From NCBI GenBank assembly GCA_016219925.1, contig JACRJU010000013.1:180472-244471 (forward strand): a DNA stretch of 64,000 nucleotides. Reading direction: 5' to 3'. This stretch comes from Candidatus Uhrbacteria bacterium (GTDB lineage Bacteria; Patescibacteriota; Patescibacteriia; UBA9934; GWF2-40-263). Both the position numbers and the translations under genes were made by a program. How positions within the stretch are numbered: position 1 is the stretch's first letter; each line of letters starts with the position of its first letter. Of the stretch, positions 4,719 through 54,009 are shown in pieces. Below the pieces are notes generated by a model. It was given only the letters and a program-made list of their open reading frames with translations. It made no database searches and was not told where the DNA came from.

Positions 4719-4797
4719 AATTTATCACAAAAACTCTTATTTGTCAATAAAAAATGACAAGCGAAAGCTTGACATTTTTAGGGAAATCAGCTAATAT
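4719..4797. promoter_or_regulatory. Back-to-back divergent sigma70-like promoters of island 1
   Basis: Plus strand: TTGACA (4769-4774), 17 nt, TAATAT (4792-4797). Minus strand: TTGACA (revcomp of 4742-4747), 17 nt, TAAATT (revcomp of 4719-4724). Confidence 0.55.
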
Positions 4798-4905
4798 CGT
4801 CCCTCACGTTCGTGTCGTTTTCAACGATTCGAACATGGGGAAAGTTTCTCAACCCGCCGCTAAGCGCGGCCAAAACGCCGCGTGAGCGGCAAGGAAGGAG
4901 GCCAG

Positions 4906-6537
4906 ATGGCCACGCAGCAGTCCCAGTCCGATACCGGTGCCTTCGGCACCGACGACGTCATCGAGCGCCTGGGCGTTCGCGTGCTCGAAGAGGGCGAGAG
5001 CCCTGCCTCCGGCACGACCGCCTTGGTGCAGTTCCGGGCCGCCCCGACCCTCAAGGCGATCGGGCGCGACCTCGCCCGCGTCGCGGCCACGACCTCCATG
5101 GGCAACCGGGAGGGCGCCCGCCGCCGGTGGCTGGACCGCATGGTCATGGTCTCCGGCCCGGATGGCAAGCCCTCGGACGTCCCGCTCTTTGTGAGCGTGA
5201 CCTTCACGGGCAAGCTCGTGACGGTCAAGGGCGTTCAGGACGTGGGGGTGAGCGCGGAGATGGAGCTCCCCGGCCTCGGCCGCGTGGAGATCCAGCCGCT
5301 CTTCACCGTCGGGATCGAGTACGTCGCCGTCAAGGAAGGCGTGCTCGTGCCCACGCGCTCCTTCACCGGCGCCCTGTTCGCCCCGAAGAGTGGCAAGGGT
5401 CCCGGCAAGTTCGTGCCCATCGACTTGGCCGACCCCCAGCTCATCGCGCGCTGGAACGGCATCGTCGAGCAGGGCAAGGCGCTCAACACCGACCACGGCA
5501 AGTGGCCGACGATCCCGGTCCTCGAGACCAAGATCGGCCGGCCCGGGCAGATGATCATCCCCTTCGCGCCCCGCTACCAGGTCAAGGAGACCTTCAACGA
5601 GCGCGGGCGTGACGGCAAGGAGCGCCAGAAGTCGATCTGGGTCATCGGGACCCGGTTCGGCAAGAAAGTGATCCTGGAAAGCCGGTCGCAGGCCCCGGCG
5701 GTCATCGACGCCAGCTCGGCAAAGCCGTTCGGCGATCTCGAGTTCGTCGTCCGTGAGGGCGAGAACTCCCTGATCGTCGTCCTGCGCGGCCGGCCCGGGC
5801 AGACGCCCCTGCCGGAGTCCATGGCGACCATCGAGCAGGCGAGCGACGGGGTGGACCCGTTCGCCGTCCTCAATCTGGACGTCATGCGCTACGAGCCCGG
5901 CCGGGCGCACACCTTCGTGGAGCGGTGCATGCAGCTTCCGCTCAACTCCGCCAATCCGCTCTACAAGAGCGCGATCAACCTCGGGCTCATCGTCGCGGGC
6001 CAGTCCACGGCGGTCGTGAGCAACCAGCTCCAGGCGCTGGCTGACGAGGCCCAGCGCAAGGCCAGGGAGTTCTGGGACGCAGCCATGAAGGCGACGTGGG
6101 AGGCCTTCAGGGTCTACACGTTGCCGGAGATCGGCGACTGCCTGCAGGGCAAGCCCCTGGGGCAGGTCATCGACCGGCTCAACCCTGAGGACGCGGCCGC
6201 GGCGTGGATCACCAGCCACGTCGAGGGCGAGTACTCGCACACGAGCCCGTTTCACCGGGTCCTGCGCGAGCGCGTCCTGCGTGCCGTCGCCCGCAAGGCC
6301 GGCTACCGCGACCCGGCCCCCGAAGGCCCCGCGGCCGACGAGCAGGCCAAGCCCGCCAAGTCCGAGGCCCCGCAGAACAGCGGGACCAACGGCGCGACCA
6401 GCCCCGTCGCCGCGGACACCGCCGAGGCCCCCAAGCCGAAGCGGACCCCGCGCAAGCCGACCAAGGGCGCCAAGCCCAAGGCCGCCGCGCGCAAGACCGC
6501 CAAGCCCAAGGGCTCCCAGCCCGCACTGCGGCAGTGA
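4906..6537 (+). CDS. Hypothetical 543-aa protein with a Lys/Pro/Ala-rich basic C-terminal tail (high-GC island 1)
   Basis: AAGGAGG at 4893-4900 precedes the ATG at 4906 by 5 nt, and the frame is very GC3-rich. The tail (PKPKRTPRKPTKGAKPKAAARKTAKPKG) resembles histone H1 / HU-tail repeats. No family was recognised for the body. Confidence 0.6.
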   Translation: MATQQSQSDTGAFGTDDVIERLGVRVLEEGESPASGTTALVQFRAAPTLKAIGRDLARVAATTSMGNREGARRRWLDRMVMVSGPDGKPSDVPLFVSVTFTGKLVTVKGVQDVGVSAEMELPGLGRVEIQPLFTVGIEYVAVKEGVLVPTRSFTGALFAPKSGKGPGKFVPIDLADPQLIARWNGIVEQGKALNTDHGKWPTIPVLETKIGRPGQMIIPFAPRYQVKETFNERGRDGKERQKSIWVIGTRFGKKVILESRSQAPAVIDASSAKPFGDLEFVVREGENSLIVVLRGRPGQTPLPESMATIEQASDGVDPFAVLNLDVMRYEPGRAHTFVERCMQLPLNSANPLYKSAINLGLIVAGQSTAVVSNQLQALADEAQRKAREFWDAAMKATWEAFRVYTLPEIGDCLQGKPLGQVIDRLNPEDAAAAWITSHVEGEYSHTSPFHRVLRERVLRAVARKAGYRDPAPEGPAADEQAKPAKSEAPQNSGTNGATSPVAADTAEAPKPKRTPRKPTKGAKPKAAARKTAKPKGSQPALRQ

Positions 6538-6600
6538 TTCCCTCCGGATCCTGCCGCTCTTTTTTTATTGTAGCGTGATAGATACAGATGACAGATCAGT

Positions 6601-6738
6601 CAGTGGGGGCCCGGCTGGCCATTTCCCCATCCGTGCTCGCAAGCTGCGCGCGGATGGGGACCCCATGGCCGCCTCCCCACTGGCCGTGACAGCTTATCCA
6701 TTCGCAAAGCGACTCTATTGCCCGAGCTTGTCGAGGGC
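6601..6738 (+). repeat. GC-rich extended-hairpin repeat, family 1, copy 1
   Basis: About 90% identical to 13221-13358. It forms nested stems: CCAGTGGGG/CCCCACTGG, GCTGGCCAT/ATGGCCGCC and CCCCATCCG/CGGATGGGG. Confidence 0.8.
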
Positions 6739-6844
6739 TGCTCTTGCAATGCGGCGTAGTCCATGCCTCCTCGACAAAATCAATCATTCATCACCGAACG
6801 AGATGGACAACGTGAAGATGAAAGGAGGAGGAACTATCCGTTGG

Positions 6845-6914
6845 TGCGATAATATGAACACAAGGGAATCCATAGGGTTCCTCCCGTGATTCCCCTGTAT
6901 TCATATCATCGCAC
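6845..6914. other. Nested inverted-repeat element upstream of the atp promoter
   Basis: The outer stem GTGCGATAATATGAA/TTCATATCATCGCAC encloses the inner stem GGGAATC/GATTCCC. Confidence 0.4.
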
Positions 6915-6952
6915 CCCAAGGGGAAGCTGTTCCTTGATATTTTTTATCCGCA

Positions 6953-6981
6953 TTGACCTTTTTCTCTGTGCCGCGTATACT
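6953..6981 (+). promoter_or_regulatory. Putative promoter of the ATP synthase operon
   Basis: TTGACC (6953-6958), 17 nt, TATACT (6976-6981). Confidence 0.5.
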
Positions 6982-7016
6982 TTCCGCGCTTGTTGACCGT
7001 TGCGCACAAGACGCTT

Positions 7017-7262
7017 ATGAGCACCGATGCCCCTTATTACCGACTTGCGATGAAGATTTTCGTAGACTTTACCGGAACCATCGCGATCCCGGTGGTTGTC
7101 GCAGCGCTTGCAGGCAAATGGCTTGATGAGCGTTATGGCACATCGCCGTGGTCTCTCATCGGCTTGTTCGCTCTTGCGCTGATTTTTACGGGCATGACGG
7201 TCGTCAAAAAAGCGTATCGGTATCGGAAAGAATTTGAATCCATTTCACACAACGCTAAGTGA
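7017..7262 (+). CDS. Small two-helix membrane protein, possibly an AtpZ/AtpI-like ATP synthase accessory protein
   Basis: An 81-aa hydrophobic protein immediately upstream of atpB, in the usual AtpI/AtpZ position. Confidence 0.4.
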   Translation: MSTDAPYYRLAMKIFVDFTGTIAIPVVVAALAGKWLDERYGTSPWSLIGLFALALIFTGMTVVKKAYRYRKEFESISHNAK

Positions 7263-7266
7263 TTGT

Positions 7267-8115
7267 ATGAGTTTCGCCATTCCTCCCGTTGCGGCTGAAC
7301 CGGTTCTCTCTATCGGAACATTTCCCATCACGAATACCATGGTGAACGCCTGGATCGCGGTTGTTTTTTTCCTGCTCATTTCTCTTGCGGTTCGTTCTCG
7401 AAAAGCGCGCGTTCCAAAAGGGTTGCAAAATATTGTGGAGTCTGTGGTGGAGTTTCTTTTGCGCGAAGTCGAAAAAGTAACAGGGGATAAAAAGAAAGCT
7501 CGGCAGTTTTTGCCGATCGTCGGCACGATCTTTCTTTTCATCCTCTTTTCTAATTGGATCGGATTGTTTCCGGGAACCGGTTCCATTGGAGTCTGGGGGA
7601 TGGTTCATGGGGAAGTGGAATTGATTCCCTTACTTCGTCCAGCCGCCAGCGATCTGAATCTCACCCTTGCGATCGCTTTGTTTGCGATCATCACCTCACA
7701 CGTCATGGCTTTGTTGTCGATCGGACCGTTAAATCACATCAGCAAATTCATCAACATCCGCGGAGTTCTGCGTTCGTTGCGCAACGGACCGATGGCTGTG
7801 ATCGTAGCGATTATCGAATTGGGTGTGGGCTTTATCGAAATCGTTGGTGAGATTGCCAAAGTGGTCTCGCTCTCGCTTCGGTTGTTTGGAAACATTTTTG
7901 CCGGCGAAGTTTTGATGACGGTTATGCTTGGATTGCTCGCCTATGTCGTGCCGATTCCGTTTATGTTTTTGGAGCTTCTGGTCGGAGCGGTTCAAGCAAC
8001 GGTTTTTGCGATGCTGACGCTTGCGTATTTGGTGGTGGCGACGGAAGATCACGGTGGCCACGAAGAAAATACTCACGGTGGCCACGAAGAAGTTCTCGTT
8101 TCAACTCATCCATAA
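7267..8115 (+). CDS. atpB: F0 ATP synthase subunit a
   Basis: Conserved LSLRLFGNIFAGEVL region with the essential Arg. The C-terminus carries a His-rich tandem repeat. Confidence 0.85.
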   Translation: MSFAIPPVAAEPVLSIGTFPITNTMVNAWIAVVFFLLISLAVRSRKARVPKGLQNIVESVVEFLLREVEKVTGDKKKARQFLPIVGTIFLFILFSNWIGLFPGTGSIGVWGMVHGEVELIPLLRPAASDLNLTLAIALFAIITSHVMALLSIGPLNHISKFINIRGVLRSLRNGPMAVIVAIIELGVGFIEIVGEIAKVVSLSLRLFGNIFAGEVLMTVMLGLLAYVVPIPFMFLELLVGAVQATVFAMLTLAYLVVATEDHGGHEENTHGGHEEVLVSTHP

Positions 8116-8355
<240 letters not shown>

Positions 8356-8528
8356 AAGTTAGCCGCAAGTAATAGGTGGCAAGTATCAAGTCGAAAACTG
8401 ACAGACTTCTGCAGAGGTCACTTGATACTTCGGACGTGTTACTCGTTTTGCCTATGTCCTCACCACAACAGACAACAGAACTTGCTCGAGGAGCCGCTCA
8501 AACCGTTGAAGCAACCGGCGGTCTTGGC

Positions 8529-9008
8529 ATGCTCGGCATCAATGCCAAAATTCTTTTGGCTCAATTGGTCAACTTTCTTATTGTGCTTCTGGTTTTGTGG
8601 CGATGGGTATATCGGCCCATGGTGAAATTGCTTGATGAACGCAGTGCGCGCATCGAAGCCAGCATGAAGCATGCCGATGAGATTGATGCGAAAATGGCGG
8701 CGATAGAAAAAGAACAACAGCGATTGGTCGGACAAGCCAAAACAGAAGCCGCGGCCATTTTAGAATCCTCTCGACAAGATGCTGAACGTCGAAAAAAAGA
8801 AATGATTGATGCGGCGAAGCAGGAGGTGCAGAGTGTTGTCGCTCAAGGAAAGGATCAGCTTCAAGCGCAAAAACACCAGATGATTCACGAGGCAAAAGAG
8901 GAGATTGTGGAGATCGCCATTCAGGCGGCCCAGAAAGTTTTACAGGAACAGATTGATGAGAAAATCTCTCATAAACTTTCCGAGCGTGTGATCAAACAAC
9001 TTTCTTAA
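8529..9008 (+). CDS. atpF: F0 ATP synthase subunit b
   Basis: One N-terminal transmembrane helix followed by a long charged coiled coil. The start is set at MLGINAK by analogy with canonical b subunits (the ORF tool starts at 8376). Confidence 0.7.
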   Translation: MLGINAKILLAQLVNFLIVLLVLWRWVYRPMVKLLDERSARIEASMKHADEIDAKMAAIEKEQQRLVGQAKTEAAAILESSRQDAERRKKEMIDAAKQEVQSVVAQGKDQLQAQKHQMIHEAKEEIVEIAIQAAQKVLQEQIDEKISHKLSERVIKQLS

Positions 9009-9011
9009 GGT

Positions 9012-10912: not shown

Positions 10913-10918
10913 TTTCCT

Positions 10919-13175
<2,257 letters not shown>

Positions 13176-13220: not shown

Positions 13221-13358
13221 CAGTGGGGGCCCGGCTGGCCATTTTCCCATCCGTGCTCGCAAGCTGCGCGCGGATGGGTGCCCCATGGCCGCCTCCCCAC
13301 TGGCCGTGACGGCTTATTCATTCGCAATGCGACTTTATTGCCTGAGCCTGTCGAAGGC
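13221..13358 (+). repeat. GC-rich extended-hairpin repeat, family 1, copy 2
   Basis: About 90% identical to 6601-6738, with the same orientation and nested stems. Confidence 0.8.
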
Positions 13359-13470
13359 AATGACGATCCCTCCGACACGGTTTTTGTCAGAACCACTGGT
13401 CTCGCAGTTTCTCCTTTCGTTTCTCTTTATCCCCCGAGCTTGTCGAGGGGGGTGCACGTAGCATCTGAAA

Positions 13471-13541
13471 GCGATTTGTAACCATGTCGGAGGGAACGAC
13501 GGCGATGAGTCCGTCGGCCCGGAGACATGGTTACAAATCGC
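13471..13541 (-). repeat. Structured hairpin repeat, family 2, copy C (inverted orientation)
   Basis: An 18-bp stem (GCGATTTGTAACCATGTC / GACATGGTTACAAATCGC) closes a loop that is the reverse complement of the conserved loop. Confidence 0.8.
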
Positions 13542-13555
13542 TTCCCATTCAACAT

Positions 13556-14808: not shown

Positions 14809-14837
14809 TTGACGGTTATCTTCACTTCAGGTAATAT
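14809..14837 (+). promoter_or_regulatory. Promoter of island-2 gene C
   Basis: TTGACG, 17 nt, TAATAT. Confidence 0.5.
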
Positions 14838-14875
14838 TTTACACCGTTCGTTCAACCCACAACCACAGGTGAGCC

Positions 14876-15490
14876 ATGGGACGATTGTCCACGTTTGACA
14901 GGGAAGTGATTGGCATCCTTCGAGAGGAGAACGTCCTGCAAGACGGCGAAGCGCACCTGCTTGAGTCGCCCACGGGTGTGATCGTGGTGGCCTGTTCGGA
15001 CGGCGACCAGATGCCGGACATCTTCGACCACTATCGGGACCTCGCGCGGGCGGGGGAATGGCCCGTGCGCCCGCACATGCTCTGCCTGCACGGTGGAGCC
15101 ATGCTGATCGCGCCCGACTGCCCGCTCTACCGCGCGTTCCACGTGGACGAACTGCTCCTTCAGCACATCCGCGAGGCCGAGGGACTCGACCTCAAGGGGA
15201 TCGGCACGGTCGTGCTCTACGTGCATGCCCCCTGTGGCGCGGCCGGCTTGGCGAACCTGACGGTCGTCAACCAGCTCGACATGCTCATGCGCGCCAAGGC
15301 TCGCGTCAAGGCGATCGATATGACCAATAGGGTCATCTGTTTCGTCCACGTCGACTACGGCAACGAGGGCAACGGAAGCCATAGACGTCGCACGTACTTC
15401 ATGTCCGCGGCGGGCTGGGCCGAGTTCTGGAACCGTCAGGGCCACGAGTTGTGGGGGCGCTTACTAGGTTTTCCTGTGTCGGCGAGTTGA
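14876..15490 (+). CDS. Hypothetical protein, paralog family member C (high-GC island 2)
   Basis: Motifs VVACSDGD, HGGAMLIAPD and HAPCGAAGL. GC3-rich frame. Confidence 0.6.
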   Translation: MGRLSTFDREVIGILREENVLQDGEAHLLESPTGVIVVACSDGDQMPDIFDHYRDLARAGEWPVRPHMLCLHGGAMLIAPDCPLYRAFHVDELLLQHIREAEGLDLKGIGTVVLYVHAPCGAAGLANLTVVNQLDMLMRAKARVKAIDMTNRVICFVHVDYGNEGNGSHRRRTYFMSAAGWAEFWNRQGHELWGRLLGFPVSAS

Positions 15491-15504
15491 ACAAACACCT
15501 CCTG

Positions 15505-15531
15505 ACCGTTCCTGCGAAGGGCGGTTTTTTT
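15505..15531 (+). terminator. Putative terminator between the island-2 paralogs
   Basis: Imperfect GC hairpin ccgttcctgcgaagggcgg followed by T7. Confidence 0.4.
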
Positions 15532-15619: not shown

Positions 15620-15648
15620 TTGACAAGATTGTGTAAAGTGCGTAAACT
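15620..15648 (+). promoter_or_regulatory. Promoter of island-2 gene D
   Basis: TTGACA, 17 nt, TAAACT, then AGGAGG 6 nt before the ATG at 15694. Confidence 0.5.
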
Positions 15649-15693
15649 CGTCGAGAGCTGTGCACCAACCGCACAGTCTAACGGAGGAGAATC

Positions 15694-16230
15694 ATGACCT
15701 TGCAAGATCTCGTGTCTCGTGGTGTGCTCGTGCCTCGGACGGTGCGCGAGAAGAACACCAAGCCGGTCGTCGTCGTCTGCGACAGCGAGACGGTCATCGA
15801 GGGGCTGTGCGACAAGCGCGTTTCTCGGCGCGTGATCGCGAACGTCGCCGGGGTGCTCGTCGGCACCCCCGAGAGCGATCTCCAGTCCGAGATCGGCGTC
15901 GATCCGGACAAGGTTCTGTACGAACCTCTCCAGATTGCCTTCTCCAACGGGCACCGGTACATCCTGCTGGTCGTAAACCCGGACGCGGTCTGGGGGATCA
16001 TGAGTGAGATGACCAACGTCGAGCTCATTGACCACATGATGCAGGTCGCTCGCGAGATCCGGGAGCGGATGCCCCACTTCGAACTCGACTGCGTCGTCGT
16101 CAAGGGAACGAACTACGGGGAGGTCTACACGGTCAACCCCGAGGCTTGGACGCGGTTCTACGCGACGTACGAGACGCGCGTGCTCGGTCGCCAGGATGAC
16201 GGGCTGGAGCTCGTCCCCGCCACCGTCTGA
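15694..16230 (+). CDS. Hypothetical protein, paralog family member D with degenerate His/Cys motif (high-GC island 2)
   Basis: Aligns with gene C (VVVVCDSE, VAGVLVGTPE, YILLVVNPDAVWG, CVVVKGTNYGE) but lacks the HxxC pair. Confidence 0.6.
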   Translation: MTLQDLVSRGVLVPRTVREKNTKPVVVVCDSETVIEGLCDKRVSRRVIANVAGVLVGTPESDLQSEIGVDPDKVLYEPLQIAFSNGHRYILLVVNPDAVWGIMSEMTNVELIDHMMQVAREIRERMPHFELDCVVVKGTNYGEVYTVNPEAWTRFYATYETRVLGRQDDGLELVPATV

Positions 16231-16344
16231 CGCCTCGCGTCTTCACTCATGGCACCTTCGCGACTTCTTCTACTGCACCCGTCGTCCTCCGGGTGCCTTT
16301 TTTATATTTTTTTTAATAGTCTCGCCAGCTAATCATTCATGAAA

Positions 16345-16415
16345 CAGATTTGTAACCATGTCTCTGGGCCAACGGACTCATCGCCGTTGTTCCCTCCGAC
16401 ATGGTTACAAATCTG
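16345..16415 (+). repeat. Structured hairpin repeat, family 2, copy D
   Basis: An 18-bp stem (CAGATTTGTAACCATGTC / GACATGGTTACAAATCTG) closes the conserved loop. It sits between convergent genes. Confidence 0.8.
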
Positions 16416-16437
16416 TTTTATAAAAAAACATCCATTC

Positions 16438-16980
16438 TCACGGATGCAGAATGCGGATGCGCAGACGGATGTGACTGCGCTTGGGGTTGCCGATGTAGAT
16501 CGAGTCGTAGTCCTGGAGCTCGACGTACACGTCACGCATCAGCGGCCGGGCCTTGGGTGCGCCGGTGCGCCGATGATACGTCGTGTGGCGGTCGGACATC
16601 GTACGCAGGCAAGGTTTGTCGTCCCGGCGTTCGATCACGGCCTGGATGCGCGAGAGCGTACGCTCTGCGTTCAGGCCAACCAGGAGCGGGAGCAGATCGA
16701 CTTCTGGCACGATGGGAGGAACGGTGGTGTCGTCCTTGCGACCGATGCGAAGAGGCGGGTCTCCCGCCGATTCCAGATCGAAGGTAAACGAGATCGGCAC
16801 ATCGCCTGCAACCAGCTCTCGATCACCCACCTGTTCAACGATGATCTCCATGGTGGCAACGGGCTGTTGCACAGCGACGATCGCCTTTGGTTGCGACGGG
16901 GGGGACAGGGGACTCCCATCCTGATCGCACACGAGCGTGCCGTTCTTGAAGTGCTTGCCGCATGAGGGGCAGGTGATCAT
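16438..16980 (-). CDS. Zinc-ribbon plus FHA-domain protein (high-GC island 3)
   Basis: N-terminal CPSCGKHF...C ribbon. FHA signatures: IGRKDD, LSRIQAVIERR, the HTTYHRRTG beta-turn and L.DYDSIYIGN. The ATG overlaps the vWA stop (ATGA). Confidence 0.6.
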   Translation of the reverse strand: MITCPSCGKHFKNGTLVCDQDGSPLSPPSQPKAIVAVQQPVATMEIIVEQVGDRELVAGDVPISFTFDLESAGDPPLRIGRKDDTTVPPIVPEVDLLPLLVGLNAERTLSRIQAVIERRDDKPCLRTMSDRHTTYHRRTGAPKARPLMRDVYVELQDYDSIYIGNPKRSHIRLRIRILHP

Positions 16981-18254
16981 GGCTTCTCCTCATCCGTTCC
17001 ACTGTGTTGCGGAAAGTGCATGGTGTGAACCACGCTGACCGAACCGCCCGTGAGCGTTTCGCTTCCGCGATCGACTGCGGCGCGGCTGTGCGTTCCACGC
17101 GCGAGGTGATCGACCATGGTGCGCAAGGCAGTGGCTGTGGCATGGTCGCCGGCACGTTCGTAGACGACCGAGGCGCCATTGAGGTCGCCGCGATCAGCCA
17201 TCTCCGCCCCGGCCATGTGTTGGGCGACCCTGATCACTTCTGGGTCGGGTTCGGTCTGTGCGGCCTCGTCCCACGTGAACGTTGCGTCGACAGAGAGGTC
17301 GCAGGTGAACGAATTGCCGCTCGAACCGGCTTCCGTGCCGGCAAGCGACAGCTTCAGGATTGGGTGAGTTCCGGGTTCCGGTGTCCCGACCTCGATCTCG
17401 AAGTAGTACTGCTGACCCCGCGCGCGATCGAGCGCGCCCGACGCATCGGTAAACGCGCCGTCTTGGCCGACGTTGAGCGGGCGCTGCTGGGGCATGAAGC
17501 GGGCCGCACGGATGAGGCTCGTCCCTTGCGAGATCTGTCCGGAGACGACCAGTCCTCGGACTCCGACCCCGCGCAGGAAGCCGACCTCGGAGCGGAGGTG
17601 ATCGAGCAGTTCGTCTGCTTGCATCACATGCTTGAGGAACGACCCGTTGCCGGCGCGAACCGCGAGTTGCTGCAGCAGGGCGAAGTTGTAGTCACCGCCG
17701 GTGCCGTAGACGAGCATCGGCAAGCCGTAGTCGCGCGCCCGATCGGCGCTCTTGACCAGTTGCTGGTGGTCTTGGTGGACGTTCACCGTGCTCTCGCCGT
17801 CGGTGAACAGGACGAGCCGCGTCTCGAAGCGGATATCGGGGCGTGTGATGGCTTCCTCGACGCCGCCGGAGATGAACGTGTCGCCTTCCGCCTTGATGGC
17901 CGCGATGAGAGCGCGCGCGTGACTGTGAACCTTATAGTCCATGTTCGTGCTGGGCAGATCAAGATCGTGGAAGTCGGCGAACGTGATGAGCGCGAGCCGA
18001 TCCTTCGGACCAAGATCGCCGATCAGCTCACGCAGGGCAAGCCGCACGGCCTCGATCTTTCTGCCCTCCATTGAGCCGGAACGGTCGATGACCAGGCGCA
18101 GGTCGATCGGCGGAGCGTTGGGGTTGGTGGTCGCGGGACGAATGTCCACGAACACCGGCACGACAACAGGACCCCCGTCGATGTGTGTGACTTCACGACC
18201 CAGATGCACGGTTACATGCACGTGAGTCAACTTGTGAACGAGCTGGGTACCCAT
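16977..18254 (-). CDS. von Willebrand factor A (vWA) domain protein with MIDAS motif (high-GC island 3)
   Basis: LVIDRSGSMEG (DxSxS), LITFADF and LFTDGES. GGAGG lies 5 nt before the ATG. The minus-strand promoter is TTGACA, 17 nt, TAACGT. Confidence 0.7.
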   Translation of the reverse strand: MGTQLVHKLTHVHVTVHLGREVTHIDGGPVVVPVFVDIRPATTNPNAPPIDLRLVIDRSGSMEGRKIEAVRLALRELIGDLGPKDRLALITFADFHDLDLPSTNMDYKVHSHARALIAAIKAEGDTFISGGVEEAITRPDIRFETRLVLFTDGESTVNVHQDHQQLVKSADRARDYGLPMLVYGTGGDYNFALLQQLAVRAGNGSFLKHVMQADELLDHLRSEVGFLRGVGVRGLVVSGQISQGTSLIRAARFMPQQRPLNVGQDGAFTDASGALDRARGQQYYFEIEVGTPEPGTHPILKLSLAGTEAGSSGNSFTCDLSVDATFTWDEAAQTEPDPEVIRVAQHMAGAEMADRGDLNGASVVYERAGDHATATALRTMVDHLARGTHSRAAVDRGSETLTGGSVSVVHTMHFPQHSGTDEEKP

Positions 18255-18342
18255 GGGAACCTCCGTGGAGTGGGTGCACGGACGTTAGGTCATTTTAGCC
18301 TTTTTGTCAACCCGTTGATGAGCCGGTATACTGAACGTCTTG

Positions 18343-29246: not shown

Positions 29247-29358
29247 CGATTTGTGCCATGTCTCTGGGCCAGCGCCTGCCCGCCATCCGGCCTGAGCCGT
29301 CAGGCGATGGCAGGCGGGGACTCCTCGCCGCTGTTCCCTCCGACATGGCACAAATCGC
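29247..29358 (+). repeat. Structured hairpin repeat, family 2, copy E (expanded loop)
   Basis: A 17-bp stem (GCGATTTGTGCCATGTC / GACATGGCACAAATCGC). The conserved loop carries an insert of about 40 nt. Confidence 0.75.
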
Positions 29359-29416
29359 AACAGGTTCCTTCGCTTCTATTGGTCGCTCATGATGGCGAAG
29401 CAAGTATCAGATATGT

Positions 29417-35283: not shown

Positions 35284-35362
35284 GTTTTGCGGTTTGTGCT
35301 ATGTCTCCGGGCCAGCGGACTCCTCGCGGCTGTTCCCTCCGACATAGCACAAACCGCAAAAC
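35284..35362 (+). repeat. Structured hairpin repeat, family 2, copy F
   Basis: A 22-bp stem (GTTTTGCGGTTTGTGCTATGTC / GACATAGCACAAACCGCAAAAC) closes the conserved loop. Confidence 0.8.
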
Positions 35363-35605
35363 GATCGACAGCAAGCACACATCTGCGTCTCTGGGTCGTC
35401 CACCCTAGCTTGTGTCTTAAAATGAAATATCGCAAAAAGAATATTCAGAAGAGTGAGCGAGACAGAAATGTCTTTCTTTTTATCTCTTCTCTCCATGGGG
35501 TGGGTGATCCCGAACACAAACCGGACCAGTCATGAAGACCAGTCCGGAATATACTGAATAACCGAGATCTATCCTAGCGTCGTATAAGGTTTATTGTACG
35601 ACACA

Positions 35606-46115: not shown

Positions 46116-46130
46116 GATCATGCCGCTCTT

Positions 46131-46604: not shown

Positions 46605-46609
46605 TCGAT

Positions 46610-49007: not shown

Positions 49008-49849
49008 ATGGGCTTAATCAAACTGGCAAGCAGACTCATGAGATAAAAAACCGGTTCAAGAATCCAGAATACCAGTCCAACCATAGGGCCATAATGTTTG
49101 CGCATATAGCGGCGCACACTTCGGCGCAGGACGTTCTGTTTTTGCACCGTGGGAACCCGATCGAAACTGCTTCCTTTCTTGTGACGCGCTTGGATTCCGG
49201 AAAAATAGTGAACGCGCCACCCGGCCTCTCTCGCCCGTTTACAGTAATCCACCTCTTCATACCAAATGAAAAAACCTTGATCAAGCGGTCCGATCGAATC
49301 GATAACTTTACGGCGGATGCAAAAGAAGGCGCCCATCACTTGATCGACATCGCTATCCTGACCATAATCAAAATCATCCATACGCCAGTGGGCAACCGGT
49401 CCGATGTTTGGCAAGAGGTGATGCAATTTGAAAAGCACGAGCATCTGGCTGAATGGTTCTGGAAAATGCCACACACATGCCTGTTGGGTGCCATCCAAGT
49501 TTTTGAGCGAGATGCCACCGATGCCGATGTCTGGATGCGCGCGCATCGCATCACGTATCTGATAAAGCGCCCCATCGGTAAAAATGATGTCGGGATTGAG
49601 CAGAACGATGAATTCATCATTTGCCTGCTGAAGGCCCAAATTACACCCGCCGGCAAAACCGAGATTGGTAGGGCTGTCAATCCAGATGACTTCATCGAAA
49701 CGTGCTTTGAGTTTTGACAGGTCATCGCCAGAGCCGTTTTCGACGACGATCACTTGTATCCCTCCGCGTTGATGGTACGCAAAGAGCGATTCAAGCATGC
49801 GCTCCAAATAGTCGGCTGTTTTGTAGTTGATTGTAATCGTTGAAATCAT
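49004..49849 (-). CDS. Family 2 glycosyltransferase
   Basis: ISTITINYKTADYL, VIVVENGSGDD and the DxD region. Confidence 0.75.
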   Translation of the reverse strand: MISTITINYKTADYLERMLESLFAYHQRGGIQVIVVENGSGDDLSKLKARFDEVIWIDSPTNLGFAGGCNLGLQQANDEFIVLLNPDIIFTDGALYQIRDAMRAHPDIGIGGISLKNLDGTQQACVWHFPEPFSQMLVLFKLHHLLPNIGPVAHWRMDDFDYGQDSDVDQVMGAFFCIRRKVIDSIGPLDQGFFIWYEEVDYCKRAREAGWRVHYFSGIQARHKKGSSFDRVPTVQKQNVLRRSVRRYMRKHYGPMVGLVFWILEPVFYLMSLLASLIKPM

Positions 49850-50553
49850 ACGAGATGATGTTTTTGTTTGATAACATTCATGGCCATTTTATAATCCCGA
49901 AGGGTTTTTGGCATCCAACCGATTCGATTCCATGGGAGACGATACATGATTGAGGGCATCCAAGTTGAGATGCTCGCGCGGCCATGGTCAGGGAGAACCC
50001 TGAACAGTTCTTTGTTGATTCCAATTCCCATTTGACCGTTTTCAAGAAGCGTCAGCCACAAATCCCAATCTTGAAATCGTTTTAGCGTTGGATCAAATCC
50101 AACAAAAGCGGTGCGTCGTATCAGAGAAGTGGTATGGATAAAATTGTGCTGGCGAAGAATGTTGGCGTCAAATGGCGTGTAGGCAAAGCGTTTTTTCCCC
50201 CAAAAAAAAACCCCGTACGCATAGGCCGCTTGAGGATGCGACTGCAAGGCTTGTTCCATTTCTTTTAGCAGATGGGAATCTGCTTGGATGTCCGCATCGC
50301 AAAAAAGAAGAAGATCGCCATGACTGTGTGCGGCGCCAGCATTGCGCGCCGCCGGAGCTCCCTGATTCGTTTGATAATACGATTGAACACGCGAACGATA
50401 ACGCGCGAGTAATTCTTGGGTAGCATCCGTAGATCCATCGTCAATCACAATAATTTCATCAGCCGTGCGGGATTGAGCGAGTAAAGAATCCAAACACCGG
50501 CTAAGGGTTTGTTCATGTTGATAGGTTGGGATGATCACGCTGATGGTGCTCAT
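49846..50553 (-). CDS. Family 2 glycosyltransferase
   Basis: SVIIPTYQHE...IIVIDDGSTD. Confidence 0.75.
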   Translation of the reverse strand: MSTISVIIPTYQHEQTLSRCLDSLLAQSRTADEIIVIDDGSTDATQELLARYRSRVQSYYQTNQGAPAARNAGAAHSHGDLLLFCDADIQADSHLLKEMEQALQSHPQAAYAYGVFFWGKKRFAYTPFDANILRQHNFIHTTSLIRRTAFVGFDPTLKRFQDWDLWLTLLENGQMGIGINKELFRVLPDHGRASISTWMPSIMYRLPWNRIGWMPKTLRDYKMAMNVIKQKHHLV

Positions 50554-51596
50554 AGATACGGATCAAGTTTTTTCCATTGATCAACACATGCAAACATATT
50601 TTGGACTCTTGTTTTTGCGTTTTGACCTAGTTGTTGGCGCAACGAGATGTCGGTGGAGAGTTGAAAAATCGCTTGAGAAAGCGCTTGCAAATTTCCCGGC
50701 GCAACAAGCAAACCCGTTTGGCCATGAACAATCGCTTCGTCTACTCCTGAAATGGTGGTGCTGATGGACGGAATGCCAAATTGTGCCGCTTCCAAAAAAA
50801 CAAGACCAAAACCTTCTTTATCAATAGGATCATTGCTCACAGGCATCACAAAGAGATCCGCTTGCGCGTAACAGTCACGCAAAGTGTTTTCATCAACTTC
50901 TCCAAGAAATTCAACCTCGTGCAAATTAAGCTCTCCGGCGGTTTGTTCAAGCATGGTTCGTTCAGGCCCCTTCCCTACGATGACATAGCGAAACGGAGGA
51001 ATTCGTCCTGTCGTTTTGAGAGATTGAAGAGCCATGAGCACCTGTAAATGGCCTTTGCGGGCAACCAACCGTCCCACCGTAAGCAGAGTGAGAGGCTTGT
51101 CGTTTGATGAAACAGAGGGTGAAGTCCTTTGCGGGTTTACACACGGATAGATTGTCAAAAGGCGAGAGAGGCGAAATTGCAGAGCGACTTCCGCGTTCAG
51201 AGCATTTGAGTTGGTGATGACGAGTGCGGCCCGTTTCAAAACGCGCGAGGCTACCCATTGTTTGAGCGGATGTTGCAACGCCAGACGGACATCCATTCCG
51301 TGAACCACAACCAAATAGGGTTTACGCGTGAACCACGAGGCCACCCAAGCAGCTGTGCCAAAAGGAAGGACATGACTCGTGATCACAAGATCGTAGGTCG
51401 CGCGCTCTTTGATGAGAAGACGTACCGCTGTGAGCCAACGAAGCGGACCGTGCGATCGCAGAAGTTGTGTCGGATCACTGACTACGCGAATGCGCTTACC
51501 GAAATACTCCTTCAAGGTTTCCAAATAGCGCGCCACTCCTCCGGTCTGCGGCGGAAATTCTGTGGTGATGAGAAGAAGACGACGACTAGCGGCCAT
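50550..51596 (-). CDS. GT4-family (GT-B) glycosyltransferase
   Basis: The EGFGLVFLEAAQFGIPSI motif (E-x7-E). Confidence 0.75.
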   Translation of the reverse strand: MAASRRLLLITTEFPPQTGGVARYLETLKEYFGKRIRVVSDPTQLLRSHGPLRWLTAVRLLIKERATYDLVITSHVLPFGTAAWVASWFTRKPYLVVVHGMDVRLALQHPLKQWVASRVLKRAALVITNSNALNAEVALQFRLSRLLTIYPCVNPQRTSPSVSSNDKPLTLLTVGRLVARKGHLQVLMALQSLKTTGRIPPFRYVIVGKGPERTMLEQTAGELNLHEVEFLGEVDENTLRDCYAQADLFVMPVSNDPIDKEGFGLVFLEAAQFGIPSISTTISGVDEAIVHGQTGLLVAPGNLQALSQAIFQLSTDISLRQQLGQNAKTRVQNMFACVDQWKKLDPYL

Positions 51597-53025
51597 AGGA
51601 GAAAAGAGATTTGAGTTTTCGCACGTCATTCAAAACCAGCAGTCTGGTGAGGACGAGAGCTATGATATAAACGGCCACACAAACTGGAATGATTGCCATC
51701 CAACCAATTATGGGCATCAACAAACGACCAACCATGACCATAAAGAGTCCGCTGATACCAAATCGTACGGCATCAAATAACGACGGCCCAAAGCGAAAAG
51801 CCGGGATGACTGGTTTGATAAAAAAGAGTCCGCTGATGAACATAAAACTAAAACTCAATAAAGCGGATATTGCGGCGCCCTGAATGCCTATTTTTGGAAC
51901 AAGCACGGCATTCAGCAAGATGTTGATGACCATGGTGAAGCCCATGATGATCGTTTTTGTGGTTTGGCGATTTCCGGCGTTGAGCAGGGAGCCAATGGGA
52001 AAATCAAGAAAGATCGGGATTAAGACGAAAACGAGCAAGGATAACACCGGGCCAGAAGCTCGATAGGCCGATCCAGCGAGAACGACGGCTTGATTTGCAA
52101 TAAGCCACAGTCCCAGAACAAGCGGGGTGCTGATGAGCATCATGTACCACAGAGCTCGGCGCAGGAGATGAGGAACACGGGCGGGATGATGTTCCAGGGC
52201 CGCACTGATGCTTGGGTAGAGGCCGGCGGTAAAGGCAAGCGGCAAAAATTGAAAAGCGTAAGTGAATTTGTAGGCGATGCTGTAAATGCCCACCGCGGTG
52301 GTATCGATGAATTTCGAAATAAACAGAGAGTCAACATAGGAATACACTTTGACGAAAATAGCAGCGAGGGCGAATGGGAGGGCCAGGCTTAACAAGTGTT
52401 TTGCATTTGCAGAGTTCCAATGCGGCTTCAAAATGGACCAGCCAAAACGTGCGATTAGGGCGCGGCTCGACAACGTCACATTTGTCGCACTGCCCAAGAC
52501 AAGAGCAAAAGTCAGCCAGAGAAGGGATGGATGGATGAAAAGGGAAAGGCCGCCAACCATTGCCGTCACTGCCTGCCCCGTAAGCATCCCCGTGGCTTCA
52601 ATCGAAAGATTTTGGTGACCGCGCAAAACTCCATAAAAAAGCAGATGTAGGGAATCCAGAATAAGCGAGAGCCCAGCGACCATGGTGAGCATTACCACTT
52701 CCCTTTCATAATGAAGCAGAAGCGCTGCGGCGATGGCTGATGCGTAGGCAATGATGAAAAGCGGAATTTTTAAACTTAAGGCTCGTGAGAGAAGGCGCGG
52801 TGTTTCTTGTGGGGATTTGGCAATCTCACGAATAACGACTGGAGTCATGCCGAAATCAGCGATGACAGAAAAAATGAGTGCGATGGAAACGGTAAGAAAA
52901 TATTGACCGGTCCGTTCTGGCTGCATGATGCGCGCGACAAACAAAAAATAGACAAAGGCCACCAGCTTTTGTCCGACGGATGCGATAGTCAGGTACAAGG
53001 TATTTTTTGCAAGAAGCCCAGACAC
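51586..53025 (-). CDS. Wzx-like polysaccharide flippase (MOP superfamily)
   Basis: A 479-aa protein with about 14 transmembrane segments and a typical Wzx N-terminus. Confidence 0.7.
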   Translation of the reverse strand: MSGLLAKNTLYLTIASVGQKLVAFVYFLFVARIMQPERTGQYFLTVSIALIFSVIADFGMTPVVIREIAKSPQETPRLLSRALSLKIPLFIIAYASAIAAALLLHYEREVVMLTMVAGLSLILDSLHLLFYGVLRGHQNLSIEATGMLTGQAVTAMVGGLSLFIHPSLLWLTFALVLGSATNVTLSSRALIARFGWSILKPHWNSANAKHLLSLALPFALAAIFVKVYSYVDSLFISKFIDTTAVGIYSIAYKFTYAFQFLPLAFTAGLYPSISAALEHHPARVPHLLRRALWYMMLISTPLVLGLWLIANQAVVLAGSAYRASGPVLSLLVFVLIPIFLDFPIGSLLNAGNRQTTKTIIMGFTMVINILLNAVLVPKIGIQGAAISALLSFSFMFISGLFFIKPVIPAFRFGPSLFDAVRFGISGLFMVMVGRLLMPIIGWMAIIPVCVAVYIIALVLTRLLVLNDVRKLKSLFSYGR

Positions 53026-53115
53026 ACAACGGCAGGATAGCGTAAAAGCGGCACTGTGTAAATAAAAAAGGCGCTTCGTGTGGCGCCGCAGGGAGAGAGC
53101 GTCGGTGTGATGGGC

Positions 53116-53964
53116 TTAGCCCAGGAAGGTGATGCTTGTGAGCGATCCGCGTCGCCCCCGGACGGTCTGGCCGAGCGGATCCAGTCCGATTTGCGTGCGT
53201 CCGATCGTCTCGAGCTCGTAGCCCTCGATTTTCAGATTGATGGCGGCCTGACCTTCGCAGAATGTGGCGCGCCACAGCGATTGCAGAACCCGTAGGAAGT
53301 GCCCTTCGAGCAGGACCCCGACCTCGCGCTGGTTCTCCTGAGCCCAGGTGTCGCGACCGGGAACCACCACCGGCTTGTGAGTGGTCTTGTGGTAGCCAGG
53401 CGGCCACAAAGAGACCTTGCCGACGCGGAGCGGCGACTTGAGCGGCCAGCATTCGGCCGCCACCATCTGGTTGTGGTGGATCGCCGCGTCGCGAGCCCTG
53501 GCGATATGCTCGATCGAGGAGGCATACCACTCGAACCGCTGTTGACCGCGACGGTCGAAAGCGAAACACCCCTGGATGATCGTGCCCGTTGGAGGCTGAA
53601 GCGCGCTGAGGTGGCGATGCCCTTCGCGAAGGGTCGAGACTGCATCGTAGCTTACACCAACGTTCCCGGTGTCGTCGATCGAGCCGCGCGTGCGTCCGAG
53701 CAAACGTTGCAGGAGACTCGGTTCGTACGGGCTGACCGACAGCGCCCAAAAGTAGTGGGTCGCCGTCGGATCTTGACGCACGTCCGTGACTTCGCTTCGG
53801 AATCCGACGACTGCCGGAACCCGGTGGCCGACACCCGGAAGGTTGATCACAGCCACATCGGTCGGGACGTCTTCGAGACGGTATTTGAGCTCTTTGGCGG
53901 CCATGGCGCCGCGCAAAGCGTCAGAGAGCGACACGTGCGAAATGGGGATCATCATTGTAGACAC
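53116..53964 (-). CDS. Hypothetical protein (high-GC island 4)
   Basis: GC3-rich frame with balanced composition. AGGAGGAGG lies 6 nt before the GTG at 53964. The ATG at 53997 is an alternative start but would sit inside the predicted promoter. Confidence 0.5.
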   Translation of the reverse strand: MSTMMIPISHVSLSDALRGAMAAKELKYRLEDVPTDVAVINLPGVGHRVPAVVGFRSEVTDVRQDPTATHYFWALSVSPYEPSLLQRLLGRTRGSIDDTGNVGVSYDAVSTLREGHRHLSALQPPTGTIIQGCFAFDRRGQQRFEWYASSIEHIARARDAAIHHNQMVAAECWPLKSPLRVGKVSLWPPGYHKTTHKPVVVPGRDTWAQENQREVGVLLEGHFLRVLQSLWRATFCEGQAAINLKIEGYELETIGRTQIGLDPLGQTVRGRRGSLTSITFLG

Positions 53965-54009
53965 AGCGTACCTCCTCCTGTTGTTGGGCGTTGGCATTTA
54001 AACATAGAA

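Follow-up and report, generated by a model that had tools for sequence, protein, structure and literature searches.

In Bacteroidetes, a few exceptional genes are strongly led by a Shine-Dalgarno (SD) sequence, as in the autoregulation of rpsU/bS21. Pairing between an mRNA U at position -1 and A37 of the initiator tRNA was reportedly the subject of earlier work by Esposito et al. SD-independent translation in Bacteroidetes was described by Jha et al. 2021 (cited within PMC9723584), and quadruplet pairing of U(-1) with initiator tRNA A37 by Hollerer and Jeschek 2023 (PMC10018350). Tsurumaki et al. 2022 (PMC9297842) detected the anti-SD motif in just 48% of Parcubacteria, which gives SD-less initiation in CPR backbones a footing in the literature. 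Classical, horizontally acquired genomic islands, as treated in the amelioration model of Lawrence and Ochman, likewise stand out as separate stretches of unusual base composition.

Here, we provide evidence that two translation-initiation styles coexist on one real chromosome of Candidatus Uhrbacteria (CPR/Patescibacteria), a tiny groundwater bacterium, as proposed in an initial annotation of this DNA. The window is a 64,000-nt stretch of chromosomal DNA; the survey covered ~74 kb out of a contig of at least 282 kb, and all translation starts are predicted from sequence. Seven high-GC ORFs (I1-I7) form three island cassettes (I1-I2, I3-I4-I5-I6, and I7), which were compared with seven CPR contigs of different sample origin (L083, L084, L085, L086, L089, L090, L091) and with the outgroups L004 (Uhrbacteria UBA11707) and L003. 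We consider it somewhat better than an even bet that these are long-resident, clade-specific accessory cassettes, whose GC-rich mRNAs need SD anchoring in an otherwise SD-less lineage.

Initiation signals of island and backbone genes

SD strength was scored as the ViennaRNA duplex of positions -20 to -2 with the 16S rRNA tail, using a core anti-SD (ACCUCCUUA) and an extended anti-SD (GAUCACCUCCUUA) that may differ from the host's own 16S 3' end; duplexes of ≤ -8 kcal/mol were taken as strong. With the extended anti-SD, all seven island genes but only 6/59 backbone genes have a strong SD (Fisher p=2e-6), the latter being at chance level, and the contrast drawn in the initial annotation is thus borne out more strongly than it was stated. 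With the core anti-SD, 6/7 island starts reach ≤ -9.4 kcal/mol and 4/59 backbone starts ≤ -8 kcal/mol (2.6% at random backbone positions), and duplex energies differ between the two classes (Mann-Whitney p=3e-5). The contrast is robust to start choice, as free selection of the best among ~5 candidate starts per backbone ORF yielded an SD in just 9/58, about the chance expectation. Extending the survey 10 kb upstream of the window (L087) added 12 backbone genes, none of them with an SD, and atpD, metG, tatD, greA, and lysS were correctly listed as SD-less. The clearest strong SD on any housekeeping gene is that of rpoA. It is not conserved in the rpoA of L086 and therefore probably reflects chance or a lineage-specific trait.

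Island SDs lie 3-6 nt from the start codons, which include ATG, GTG, and TTG as annotated. AGGAGG or GGAGG had been claimed for all seven genes; an SD is indeed present at each, but that of I3 is AGGTGA, with duplex energies of -3.8 (core anti-SD) and -8.4 (extended anti-SD). At backbone starts, T at -1 is found in 48/59 cases versus 13.9% of all backbone ATGs (binomial p ~1e-23), and U(-1) recurs in 11/12 backbone genes directly upstream of the window; in six of the seven island genes this position is occupied by C or G. Backbone starts sit a few nucleotides past an upstream stop codon or a -10 box. Backbone initiation is SD-independent, and the U 5' of AUG could pair with initiator tRNA A37. 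Folding energies at -20 to +20 are -3.9 kcal/mol for backbone starts, -6.2 for island starts, and -11.2 for random island coding sequence. Backbone start regions thus fold weakly, but those of the islands also fold far less than island coding sequence does, which counts against the proposed need for SD anchoring.

Canonical promoters had also been assigned to all seven island genes. TTGAC(A/G)-17-TAxxxT boxes precede five island transcription units (I1, I2, I3, I4 and, with a weak -10, I6), while I5 shares a transcript with I6 and I7 lacks a clear box. Of the 13 top-scoring sigma-70-like sites in the window, nine belong to backbone genes, among them the atp operon, helicase, alaS, infA, def, and others. 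As the backbone shares this promoter type, a canonical promoter neither distinguishes island from backbone genes nor marks a gene as foreign. The first atp-operon gene (ATG at 7017) has no SD. The helicase -10 box ends as close to the ATG as the initial annotation had stated, which would make the mRNA nearly leaderless.

Organization of the three cassettes

Table 1. Positions of island features and selected backbone signals in the window (SD, Shine-Dalgarno sequence; energies in kcal/mol)
Feature	Position	Strand	Details
I1, orphan CDS	3805..4677	-	290 aa, TTG start, GC 0.66
I1 SD	4684..4689	-	AGGAGG, 6 nt ahead of TTG; dG -11.6 and -15.1
I1 promoter	4719..4747	-	TTGACA-17-TAAATT; -35 conserved in relatives
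I2 promoter	4769..4797	+	TTGACA-17-TAATAT; followed by ~100-nt 5' UTR
I2 SD	4895..4901	+	AAGGAGG, 4 nt ahead of ATG 4906; dG -11.7
I2, orphan CDS	4906..6537	+	543 aa, GC 0.70, GC3 0.95
GC-rich repeat copy	6601..6738		138 nt; twin at 13221-13358, 93% identity
Backbone atp-operon promoter	6953..6981	+	TTGACC-17-TATACT; conserved in L083
I3 promoter	14809..14837	+	TTGACG-17-TAATAT; 9/12 matches
I3 SD	14867..14872	+	variant AGGTGA, 3 nt ahead of ATG
I3, orphan CDS	14876..15490	+	204 aa, GC 0.63; own terminator 15504-15526
I4 promoter	15620..15648	+	TTGACA-17-TAAACT
I4 SD	15683..15689	+	GGAGGAG, 4 nt ahead of ATG; duplex -9.5
I4, orphan CDS	15694..16230	+	178 aa, GC 0.63; terminator 16275-16296
I5, CDS	16438..16980	-	180 aa; terminator 16447-16428
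I6, VWA-domain CDS	16977..18254	-	425 aa, GC 0.64; PF00092, 7e-15
Backbone helicase promoter	18304..18332	+	TTGTCA-17-TATACT; ends 10 nt before ATG 18343; no SD
I7, orphan CDS	53116..53964	-	282 aa, GTG start, GC 0.63; terminator ~53070-53087
SD of housekeeping gene rpoA	55861..55876	-	TAGGAGGACCTT before ATG at 55860; duplex -10.2

The I1 product, called identically with 290 aa in Logan, consists of an N-terminal domain, a Pro/Ala/Arg-rich linker, and a helical C-terminal domain, and its homologues are divergent to I2 in L083, L085, and L089. I2 has beta-rich and helical domains plus a basic tail rich in Lys, Pro, and Ala, and belongs to a family of 62 clusters, the named members of which are CPR. 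Footprinting of the I1-I2 spacer confined conservation to the two promoter boxes (-35 and -10), a block that follows shortly after the -10, and the SDs. The CTTGACATTTTT of the I2 promoter is invariant across four genomes, with the -10 kept at 17-nt spacing, and in L083 and L085 the SD reads AGGAGG or GGAGGTG for I1 and AGGAGG for I2. The GC-rich tail to the right of this island is due to the repeat copy and contains no gene.

In the second cassette, I4 is a distant paralogue of I3, whose orthologue in L091 (42% identity) has the SD GAGGTGA. I6 precedes I5 in L089, L090, and L091 without exception. The I6 coding sequence contains the SD of I5 (GAGGAG, 16986-16991), the I5 ATG overlaps the I6 stop (ATGA), and the sigma-70 scan revealed no separate promoter for I5. 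I6 has the SD GGAGG (18260-18264) 5 nt ahead of its ATG and a promoter (TTGACA-17-TAACGT, 18310-18282) that overlaps the helicase -35 and whose weak -10 places it under the scan threshold. I5 has a zinc ribbon (CxxC...C) at the N terminus and an FHA-like portion at the C terminus; the VWA domain of I6 is the one functional assignment among the island proteins. Values of dN/dS of ~0.2 for I6 and ~0.16 for I5 indicate purifying selection.

I7 follows directly after the rpsI terminator and carries the SD AGGAGGAGG (53971-53979) 6 nt upstream of its GTG; no canonical promoter for it was found in the window. Its orthologue in Uhrbacteria GCA_016208545 occupies the same rpsI / polysaccharide-synthase position and has TTGACA-17-TAACTT plus GAGGGG.

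Age and descent of the cassettes

Abrupt GC steps and the ends of two Logan contigs (L001, L002) at island edges could point to an assembly or binning chimera, in which a CPR contig would have been fused with GC-rich fragments from a different organism. This explanation, also raised in the initial annotation, is refuted for practical purposes and has next to no probability left. Independent Logan contigs span the backbone-island junctions on both sides (tatD-I1-I2, helicase-I6-I5, and rpsI-I7-polysaccharide synthase), and these junctions are found again in seven further samples or assemblies. The contigs break at dispersed repeats (L001 at repeat 6601-6738), and island UTR composition is backbone-like.

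Island coding sequences have a GC content of 0.62-0.70 and GC3 of up to 0.95, compared with a genome GC3 of ~0.5. Recent horizontal acquisition from GC-rich, SD-using donors would make GC, SDs, and promoters unameliorated donor signatures. It would fit the codon-position composition of I2 (GC1/GC2/GC3 of 0.67/0.49/0.95, typical of a ~70% GC genome), the sharp island boundaries, the orphan nature of the genes, and the empty sites in the outgroups L004 and L003; in L004, tatD abuts atpI and atpC abuts the helicase. Recent acquisition is nevertheless largely refuted and very improbable, as orthologues at 35-70% identity are present in the seven CPR contigs at the same position, with SD and with a GC offset of +0.06 to +0.22. 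Homologues of I1 and I2 adjoin the atp operon in L083, L084, and L085; the I7 homologue lies between rpsI and polysaccharide synthase in L086, and the order in L091 is helicase, I6, I5, I4, I3, and orf13999 homologues, atpC. Synonymous sites of I2 in the window and in L083 are saturated (observed/expected 1.01, fully randomized), yet GC3 is still 0.95 and 0.90, respectively. Island protein distances rank in the same way as backbone protein distances, and island GC tracks the backbone GC of each genome at a roughly constant offset. The GC rise is limited to coding sequences: intergenic DNA between island genes has a GC content of 0.45-0.48, and island promoters and UTRs are not GC-rich. Neither an integrase, att site, or tRNA nor a donor outside CPR was found, the named I2-family members and the sole other homologue of I7 being Uhrbacteria or Patescibacteria.

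High GC3 and SDs thus persist despite saturated synonymous sites, and their persistence at the same places in relatives shows that they are maintained and not left over from recent transfer. Given the empty outgroup sites, one ancient insertion is likely. The cassettes entered conserved backbone junctions before the clade diversified and have been vertically inherited since. The horizontal acquisition favored in the initial annotation therefore holds insofar as the islands are insertions relative to UBA11707; recent arrival does not, given the diverged positional orthologues and the saturated I2 sites.

Maintained GC3 at saturated sites could also result from repeated replacement, with a GC-rich phage, plasmid, or other element that circulates among these CPR lineages re-seeding the cassettes through homologous recombination at conserved flanks and so refreshing GC and SD. 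Cassettes that come complete with promoter and terminator would suit such a reservoir, as would the fast evolution of the island proteins and the variable module order (I6-I5 abuts I2-I1 in L089, and the L090 island includes a GC-rich, SD-led Na+/H+ exchanger). However, scans of viral contigs and metagenomes for the I2 family gave no match, PHROG searches gave none except a marginal one to the VWA domain, and mobility genes are absent. The congruent distance ranks, the tracking of backbone GC, and the composition of the intergenic cassette parts likewise speak against replacement, which we regard as quite unlikely.

Proposed initiation regime and comparison with known systems

The seven island genes are clade-specific, fast-evolving orphans with 5' UTRs that leave room for an SD, and the cassettes bring sigma-70-type promoters and intrinsic terminators of their own. 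If long-resident, these genes would follow a separate initiation regime, and they were first acquired probably by horizontal transfer from a GC-rich, SD-using source. Near the start codon, GC-rich mRNAs may form structures too stable for SD-independent initiation, a correlative argument; SD:anti-SD pairing would then be needed to dock the 30S subunit, the SD would be under purifying selection, and the ribosome would still have to carry a usable anti-SD. Coding GC may be kept high by selection on codons or on the mRNA. SDs occur in 20/24 island homologues, and 2/24 have T at -1; that GC excess correlates only weakly with SD strength among the 24 (Spearman -0.29, p=0.17) speaks against the proposed link between GC-rich mRNA and SD need. 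SDs were kept in orthologues although nearby UTR sequence diverged, which is consistent with the predicted dependence of island expression on SD-competent ribosomes. In a clade without anti-SD, SD-led docking cannot be the mechanism.

An extension compatible with the proposed SD anchoring is that the linked, SD-led, GC-rich genes form a translational regulon gated by the anti-SD state and would be made only in certain situations, for example host contact or stress. The analogy is with Bacteroidetes, where scarcity of bS21 releases the anti-SD from sequestration. Many Parcubacteria lack bS21 (PMC9297842). Such gating would agree with the restriction of SDs to a few conserved genes of a genome that otherwise does without them, the physical joining of the first two islands in L089, which suggests a functional link, the resemblance of I5 and I6 to a signalling pair, and the long I2 5' UTR with its conserved blocks. 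SD-led translation may, however, simply be constitutive, and we consider a regulon rather unlikely.

Like classical genomic islands, the cassettes are inserted at junctions that are intact in the outgroup and carry orphan accessory genes with their own expression signals. Unlike those islands, in which foreign or ORFan genes are usually AT-rich, they are GC-rich, lack integrase, tRNA, att site, and mobility genes, have no identifiable donor lineage, and keep their position across lineages with saturated synonymous sites; their atypical composition ends at CDS boundaries, and GC3 has stayed high where Lawrence-Ochman amelioration would have brought it closer to that of the host. Bacteroidetes share with the ~74 kb surveyed here a genome-wide lack of SDs with a handful of strong canonical ones, as well as reduced mRNA structure at SD-less starts. 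They are, however, a different phylum with an A-rich, Kozak-like start context instead of U(-1), and their SD-led exception is a ribosomal protein gene, whereas the SD-led genes here are GC-rich orphans. Reduced ribosomes and frequent anti-SD absence in Parcubacteria concern the same superphylum; PMC9297842 surveys rRNA and the content of ribosomal proteins rather than the start contexts of mRNAs, and it describes neither GC-rich gene sets led by SDs nor a U(-1) rule. The system of Hollerer and Jeschek shares the U directly 5' of the start codon that dominates at backbone starts here. In E. coli the effect of U(-1) is modest and modulatory, whereas in this chromosome it is a near-rule (~80-100% of backbone genes) that is absent at SD-led genes.

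Composition and initiation signals of islands and backbone

The I2 protein is identical to NCBI HZA85_03365, encoded on a 281,942-bp contig of a Candidatus Uhrbacteria (CPR/Patescibacteria) metagenome-assembled genome, and the window's atpA, compared to species-representative genomes, is closest to Moranbacteria and Uhrbacteria sequences (about 70% identity). The seven island genes I1 to I7 occupy three blocks of 0.60-0.70 GC (approximately 3.8-6.5 kb, 14.9-18.3 kb and 53.1-54.0 kb) within a backbone of about 0.49. Their coding sequences have a GC content of 0.62-0.70 versus 0.49 in the backbone, and a third-position GC content (GC3) of 0.74-0.95 versus about 0.5. The elevation stops at the boundaries of the coding sequences and the spacers between island genes fall to 0.45-0.48, which argues against a regional bias in mutation or in gene conversion as its cause; both were rejected. 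A GC-rich stretch at 6600-6780, considered as an eighth island gene, proved to be a dispersed repeat.

Island genes, their promoters as read from consensus scans of the window, and dispersed repeats
Feature	Position	Strand	Start	Promoter or remark
I1	3805-4677	-	TTG	TTGACA-17-TAAATT
I2	4906-6537	+	ATG	TTGACA-17-TAATAT; -35 and -10 kept in 4 genomes
I3	14876-15490	+	ATG	TTGACG-17-TAATAT
I4	15694-16230	+	ATG	TTGACA-17-TAAACT
I5	16438-16980	-	ATG	none of its own; ATG overlaps I6 stop
I6	16977-18254	-	ATG	TTGACA-17-TAACGT; weak -10, under scan threshold
I7	53116-53964	-	GTG	canonical box absent in window; gene follows rpsI terminator
Hairpin element, ~80 nt	2678-2758, 2790-2836, 13468-13539 (opposite orientation), 16341-16421, 29285-29365, 35284-35364			core GGACTCCTCGCCGCTGTTCCCTCCGACATGG
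GC-rich (0.67) repeat, 138 nt	6601-6738, 13221-13358			93% identity, internal hairpins
Direct repeat, 97 nt	2451-2547, 2580-2676			98% identity; long intergenic region upstream of tatD
Repeat, 28 nt	2549-2576, 2756-2783			long intergenic region upstream of tatD

Shine-Dalgarno (SD) strength was scored as the duplex energy between positions -20 to -2 and a 16S rRNA tail, which was assumed and may not be the host's own, at the island starts and at 59 curated backbone starts, several of which match independent gene calls on Logan contigs. Against the core anti-SD ACCUCCUUA of this assumed tail, six of the seven island starts lie at or below -9.4 kcal/mol, whereas -8 is reached by only 4/59 backbone starts and by 2.6% of positions drawn at random from the backbone. 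On average, backbone starts are even less SD-like than such random positions (duplex energy -1.56 versus -2.16 kcal/mol). With the extended tail GAUCACCUCCUUA, all seven island starts score -8.4 or lower versus 6/59 backbone starts that reach -8 (Fisher p=2e-6). The initial annotation had placed AGGAGG or GGAGG ahead of all seven genes; this wording fails for I3, which carries AGGTGA, but an SD match to the extended tail is present in every case, as a purine-rich motif complementary to CCUCC at a spacing of 3-6 nt from the start.

The low backbone count persisted when starts were chosen freely. Taking the best of about five candidates per backbone ORF yielded an SD in 9/58, approximately the chance expectation, and 12 further backbone genes within the 10 kb that precede the window all lack one. 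The SD contrast is thus real and not a product of start choice. The flanks beyond the window (about 10 kb left, about 1.3 kb right) are entirely protein-coding, and an Rfam scan of the whole window returned no family; neither rRNA nor tRNA lies within it. The clearest backbone SD is that of rpoA (TAGGAGGACCTTATG). At 55861-55876 this gene has a perfect SD, TAGGAGGACCTT-ATG, unlike its operon neighbours; it was rejected as a sign of general SD use, as the orthologue in a related Uhrbacteria genome (GCA_016208545, contig L086) has no SD.

Backbone starts follow a different pattern. T precedes the start codon in 48/59 backbone genes of the window and in 11/12 of those upstream, compared to 13.9% of all backbone ATG triplets (binomial p ~1e-23), and in all 17 backbone genes neighbouring the islands in GCA_016208545. 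Examples are the starts at 475, 7267, 11796 and 54447, and the same context occurs in GCA_016208545, in the CPR contig L083 and upstream of the window. The position matrix further reveals depletion of G at -3 and no A enrichment of the kind expected for an A-rich, Kozak-like upstream context; T(-1) dominates. At six of the seven island starts, position -1 is C or G. U(-1)AUG is therefore a near-rule as the backbone start context, possibly through pairing with A37 of tRNA-fMet, as U(-1) can pair with this base of the initiator tRNA and, in E. coli, favours initiation (PMC10018350). Folding of positions -20 to +20 averages -3.9 kcal/mol at backbone starts versus -6.2 in random backbone 40-mers, and -6.2 at island starts versus -11.2 in random island coding sequence.

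In a crude automated survey of atp loci from other Patescibacteria, 0-19% of first ATGs had an SD and 41-100% had T(-1), versus 68% and 11% in the Paenibacillus control. Because SDs are few and T(-1) is frequent in this survey, initiation with U(-1) and no SD seems to be common among these CPR lineages, which fits the reported detection of an anti-SD motif in only 48% of Parcubacteria 16S rRNA genes (PMC9297842). A U(-1) rule would help start prediction in CPR genomes, where gene callers that are blind to SDs or assume them may misplace starts. The database call for the I2 homologue P0004 on the CPR contig L085 (1459-1527) is too long by 23 codons at its 5' end, the real start being the conserved AGGAGGATCC-ATG.

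Promoters, leaders and dispersed repeats

Promoters were called as sigma-70-type where a TTGACA-like -35 and a TATAAT-like -10 lay 16-18 nt apart. The initial annotation had claimed canonical boxes ahead of all seven island genes. This stands for I1-I4, is weakened for I6 by its -10, and falls for the operonic I5 and for I7, although the I7 orthologue in GCA_016208545 has TTGACA-17-TAACTT. As an island hallmark the promoter was overstated. Nine of the 13 best sigma-70-like sites of the window precede backbone genes (atp operon, helicase, alaS, infA, def and others), with TTGACC-17-TATACT at the atp operon and TTGTCA-17-TATACT at the helicase, and promoter type therefore does not distinguish islands from backbone. 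Leader length does differ, as several backbone -10 boxes end 9-37 nt before the start versus 28-108 nt in the islands. By the predicted position of the -10 box, the mRNAs of helicase (10 nt, as already noted in the initial annotation), alaS (10 nt) and def (9 nt) would be near-leaderless. Each island transcription unit has an intrinsic terminator of its own.

At 18282-18332, the divergent I6 and helicase promoters have overlapping -35 hexamers (TTGTCAA on both strands), and RNA polymerase binding may therefore be contested by, or shared between, the two genes. The I2 leader (4798-4905) is about 100 nt long and contains blocks kept across four genomes in the spacer alignment, including CTCAAG just 3' of the -10; GC-rich hairpins lie just ahead of the SD. 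This 5' UTR may have a regulatory role.

The ~80-nt hairpin element has a conserved core and an outer stem that varies yet stays self-complementary. It is without a match in Rfam and resembles a MITE or REP element; a small RNA is another possibility. One copy sits inside the second island, at the end of a Logan contig (L002). One copy of the 138-nt repeat forms the apparent GC-rich tail of the first island and the second is found in the atpD-atpC interval. A 25-mer related to this repeat is present again at 13425-13449.

Conservation, age and origin of the islands

Assembly chimerism, entertained by the initial annotation as a less likely source of the islands, is excluded. Independent Logan contigs (SRR12113407) cross the junctions, spanning tatD-I1-I2, helicase-I6-I5 and rpsI-I7-polysaccharide synthase, and break at dispersed repeats; the same island positions recur in other samples. 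A search among 5.8 billion proteins recovered few homologues, all from other samples and all at the same genomic positions. I2 homologues (43-51% identity) lie directly upstream of atpI-atpB with a divergent I1-like gene on three contigs (L083, L084, L085). The single other homologue of I7 (40% identity) is flanked by rpsI and the polysaccharide synthase gene in GCA_016208545. On L091 the full order helicase, I6, I5, I4, I3, orf13999, atpC is kept, and on L090 helicase, I6 and I5 are followed by more GC-rich SD-led genes. Helicase-adjacent positions may accumulate such genes. In the helicase-adjacent island of L090 (8061-10563), a Na+/H+ exchanger gene of raised GC content (0.56) starts behind a perfect SD (TAGGAGGAAAC-ATG), and an I4-like gene has a GC3 of 0.92.

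The compositional and initiation signatures are shared by these homologues. On every contig their GC content exceeds that of their own backbone (0.39-0.49) by 0.06 to 0.22, and 20/24 have an SD and 2/24 T at -1, whereas the backbone genes beside them have T(-1) and no SD. The contrast proposed in the initial annotation, SD-led GC-rich genes amid an SD-less backbone, is thereby confirmed and extends to the whole clade. GC excess and SD strength were not significantly correlated (rho -0.29, p=0.17). In a four-genome alignment of the I1-I2 spacer, only the two -35 hexamers, the -10 at 17 nt, the block 3' of the -10 and the two SDs are kept; the SDs persist in orthologues while the flanking UTR diverges. 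L085 has a ~300-nt insertion with long, MITE-like hairpin repeats in this spacer (~1060-1400), with promoters and SDs intact.

The islands are old. Backbone genes of the window and its relatives are near synonymous saturation (pS 0.55-0.77). For I2, the differing share of codon pairs that encode identical amino acids was compared to a redraw from each gene's own usage; observed and expected values were both 0.41 (ratio 1.01). The codons of I2 have thus been fully redrawn, yet GC3 remains high (window 0.95, L083 0.90) and is therefore being maintained at this level, rather than fading from that of a donor. Purifying selection acts on I5 and I6 (dN/dS ~0.16-0.2). The genomes fall in the same order of pairwise identity whether I2, I5 and I6 or atpB/atpE and the helicase are compared, which supports co-divergence over repeated import. 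The recent acquisition implied by the initial annotation is wrong, as the islands hold the same positions across lineages with saturated synonymous sites.

A separate history of the islands does hold in another sense, as they are insertions relative to the outgroup, neither recent nor chimeric. In the outgroup Uhrbacteria UBA11707 (L004), atpI directly follows tatD and the helicase directly follows atpC; tatD and atpI are likewise adjacent in L003, and I1-I7 are missing from the more distant CPR loci compared. These empty junctions indicate that the cassettes were gained there by an ancestor of the window's clade. Exhaustive searching with a profile placed the I2 family in only 62 clusters among 1.84 billion representatives, with all named members assigned to Uhrbacteria or Patescibacteria, and scans of viral contigs and JGI metagenomes yielded no relatives of this family. 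A GC-rich foreign donor is plausible.

Function, mechanism and likeness to known systems

Only I6 has a database match, a VWA domain (PF00092, E 7e-15); Pfam, PHROG, PADLOC and NCBIfam gave no matches for the other six island proteins. I5, which always follows I6, combines a zinc ribbon at its N terminus with an FHA-like C-terminal part. Motifs common to I3 and I4 in a five-sequence alignment make them look like old paralogues, with no significant BLASTP match between them. I2 combines beta-rich and helical domains with a basic Lys/Pro/Ala-rich tail; its AlphaFold2 model has a pLDDT of 62 and Foldseek found nothing in the PDB below E 0.09. Searching the PDB with profiles of the I5 and I3/I4 alignments returned nothing meaningful. 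On L089 (1-5003), the helicase gene and homologues of I6 and I5 are joined directly to homologues of I2 and I1; the two gene pairs lie in separate islands in the window. Because the two cassettes adjoin there, their arrangement suggests that I6-I5 and I2-I1 are one functional system. As conserved, fast-evolving genes of unassigned role, the island genes are candidates for a role in conflict or in interaction with the host among uncultured episymbionts.

The most likely mechanism behind the two initiation styles is that GC-rich mRNAs need an SD. Structure-prone island transcripts would be unable to use the low-structure, SD-free U(-1)AUG route of the backbone, and for this reason, we propose, selection would keep the SD on island genes. 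CPR ribosomes are reduced and many are reported to lack an anti-SD; the islands would imply a usable one, and to that extent the initial annotation was right. It is intriguing, if rather unlikely, that the clade keeps two initiation regimes by selection, with the housekeeping genes relying on SD-free U(-1)AUG starts and I1-I7 a functionally linked SD-led regulon that would depend on, and might be switched by, a free anti-SD or specialised ribosome state, and with coding GC adaptive at the mRNA level instead of a relic of transfer. GC3 of at least 0.9 in a genome with GC3 near 0.5 is the most interesting point raised by the islands, and an SD-led gene set inside an SD-less U(-1)AUG genome is a natural test case for start-site choice and anti-SD retention in CPR.

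Atypical composition combined with atypical ribosome-binding sites is routinely taken as recent horizontal transfer. The signature described here is stable across synonymously saturated lineages, and composition-based calls of horizontal transfer in CPR can therefore mistime such events. The window islands share a distinct composition and an empty site with horizontally acquired genomic islands. However, mobility hallmarks, patchiness and an identifiable donor are absent. Mobility domains were found in none of the island ORFs (Pfam, PHROG, NCBIfam), no tRNA or direct repeats flank the islands in the window, and the dispersed repeats are not island-bounded. The search for a patchy distribution or donor lineage instead returned the same positions on seven contigs (L083-L086, L089-L091) and named homologues only from CPR. 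The backbone, in turn, resembles SD-independent initiation of the Bacteroidetes type in having no SD enrichment over random positions and less structure around the start. An A-rich, Kozak-like context, however, is characteristic of Bacteroidetes, whereas the backbone genes described here have T(-1) instead.
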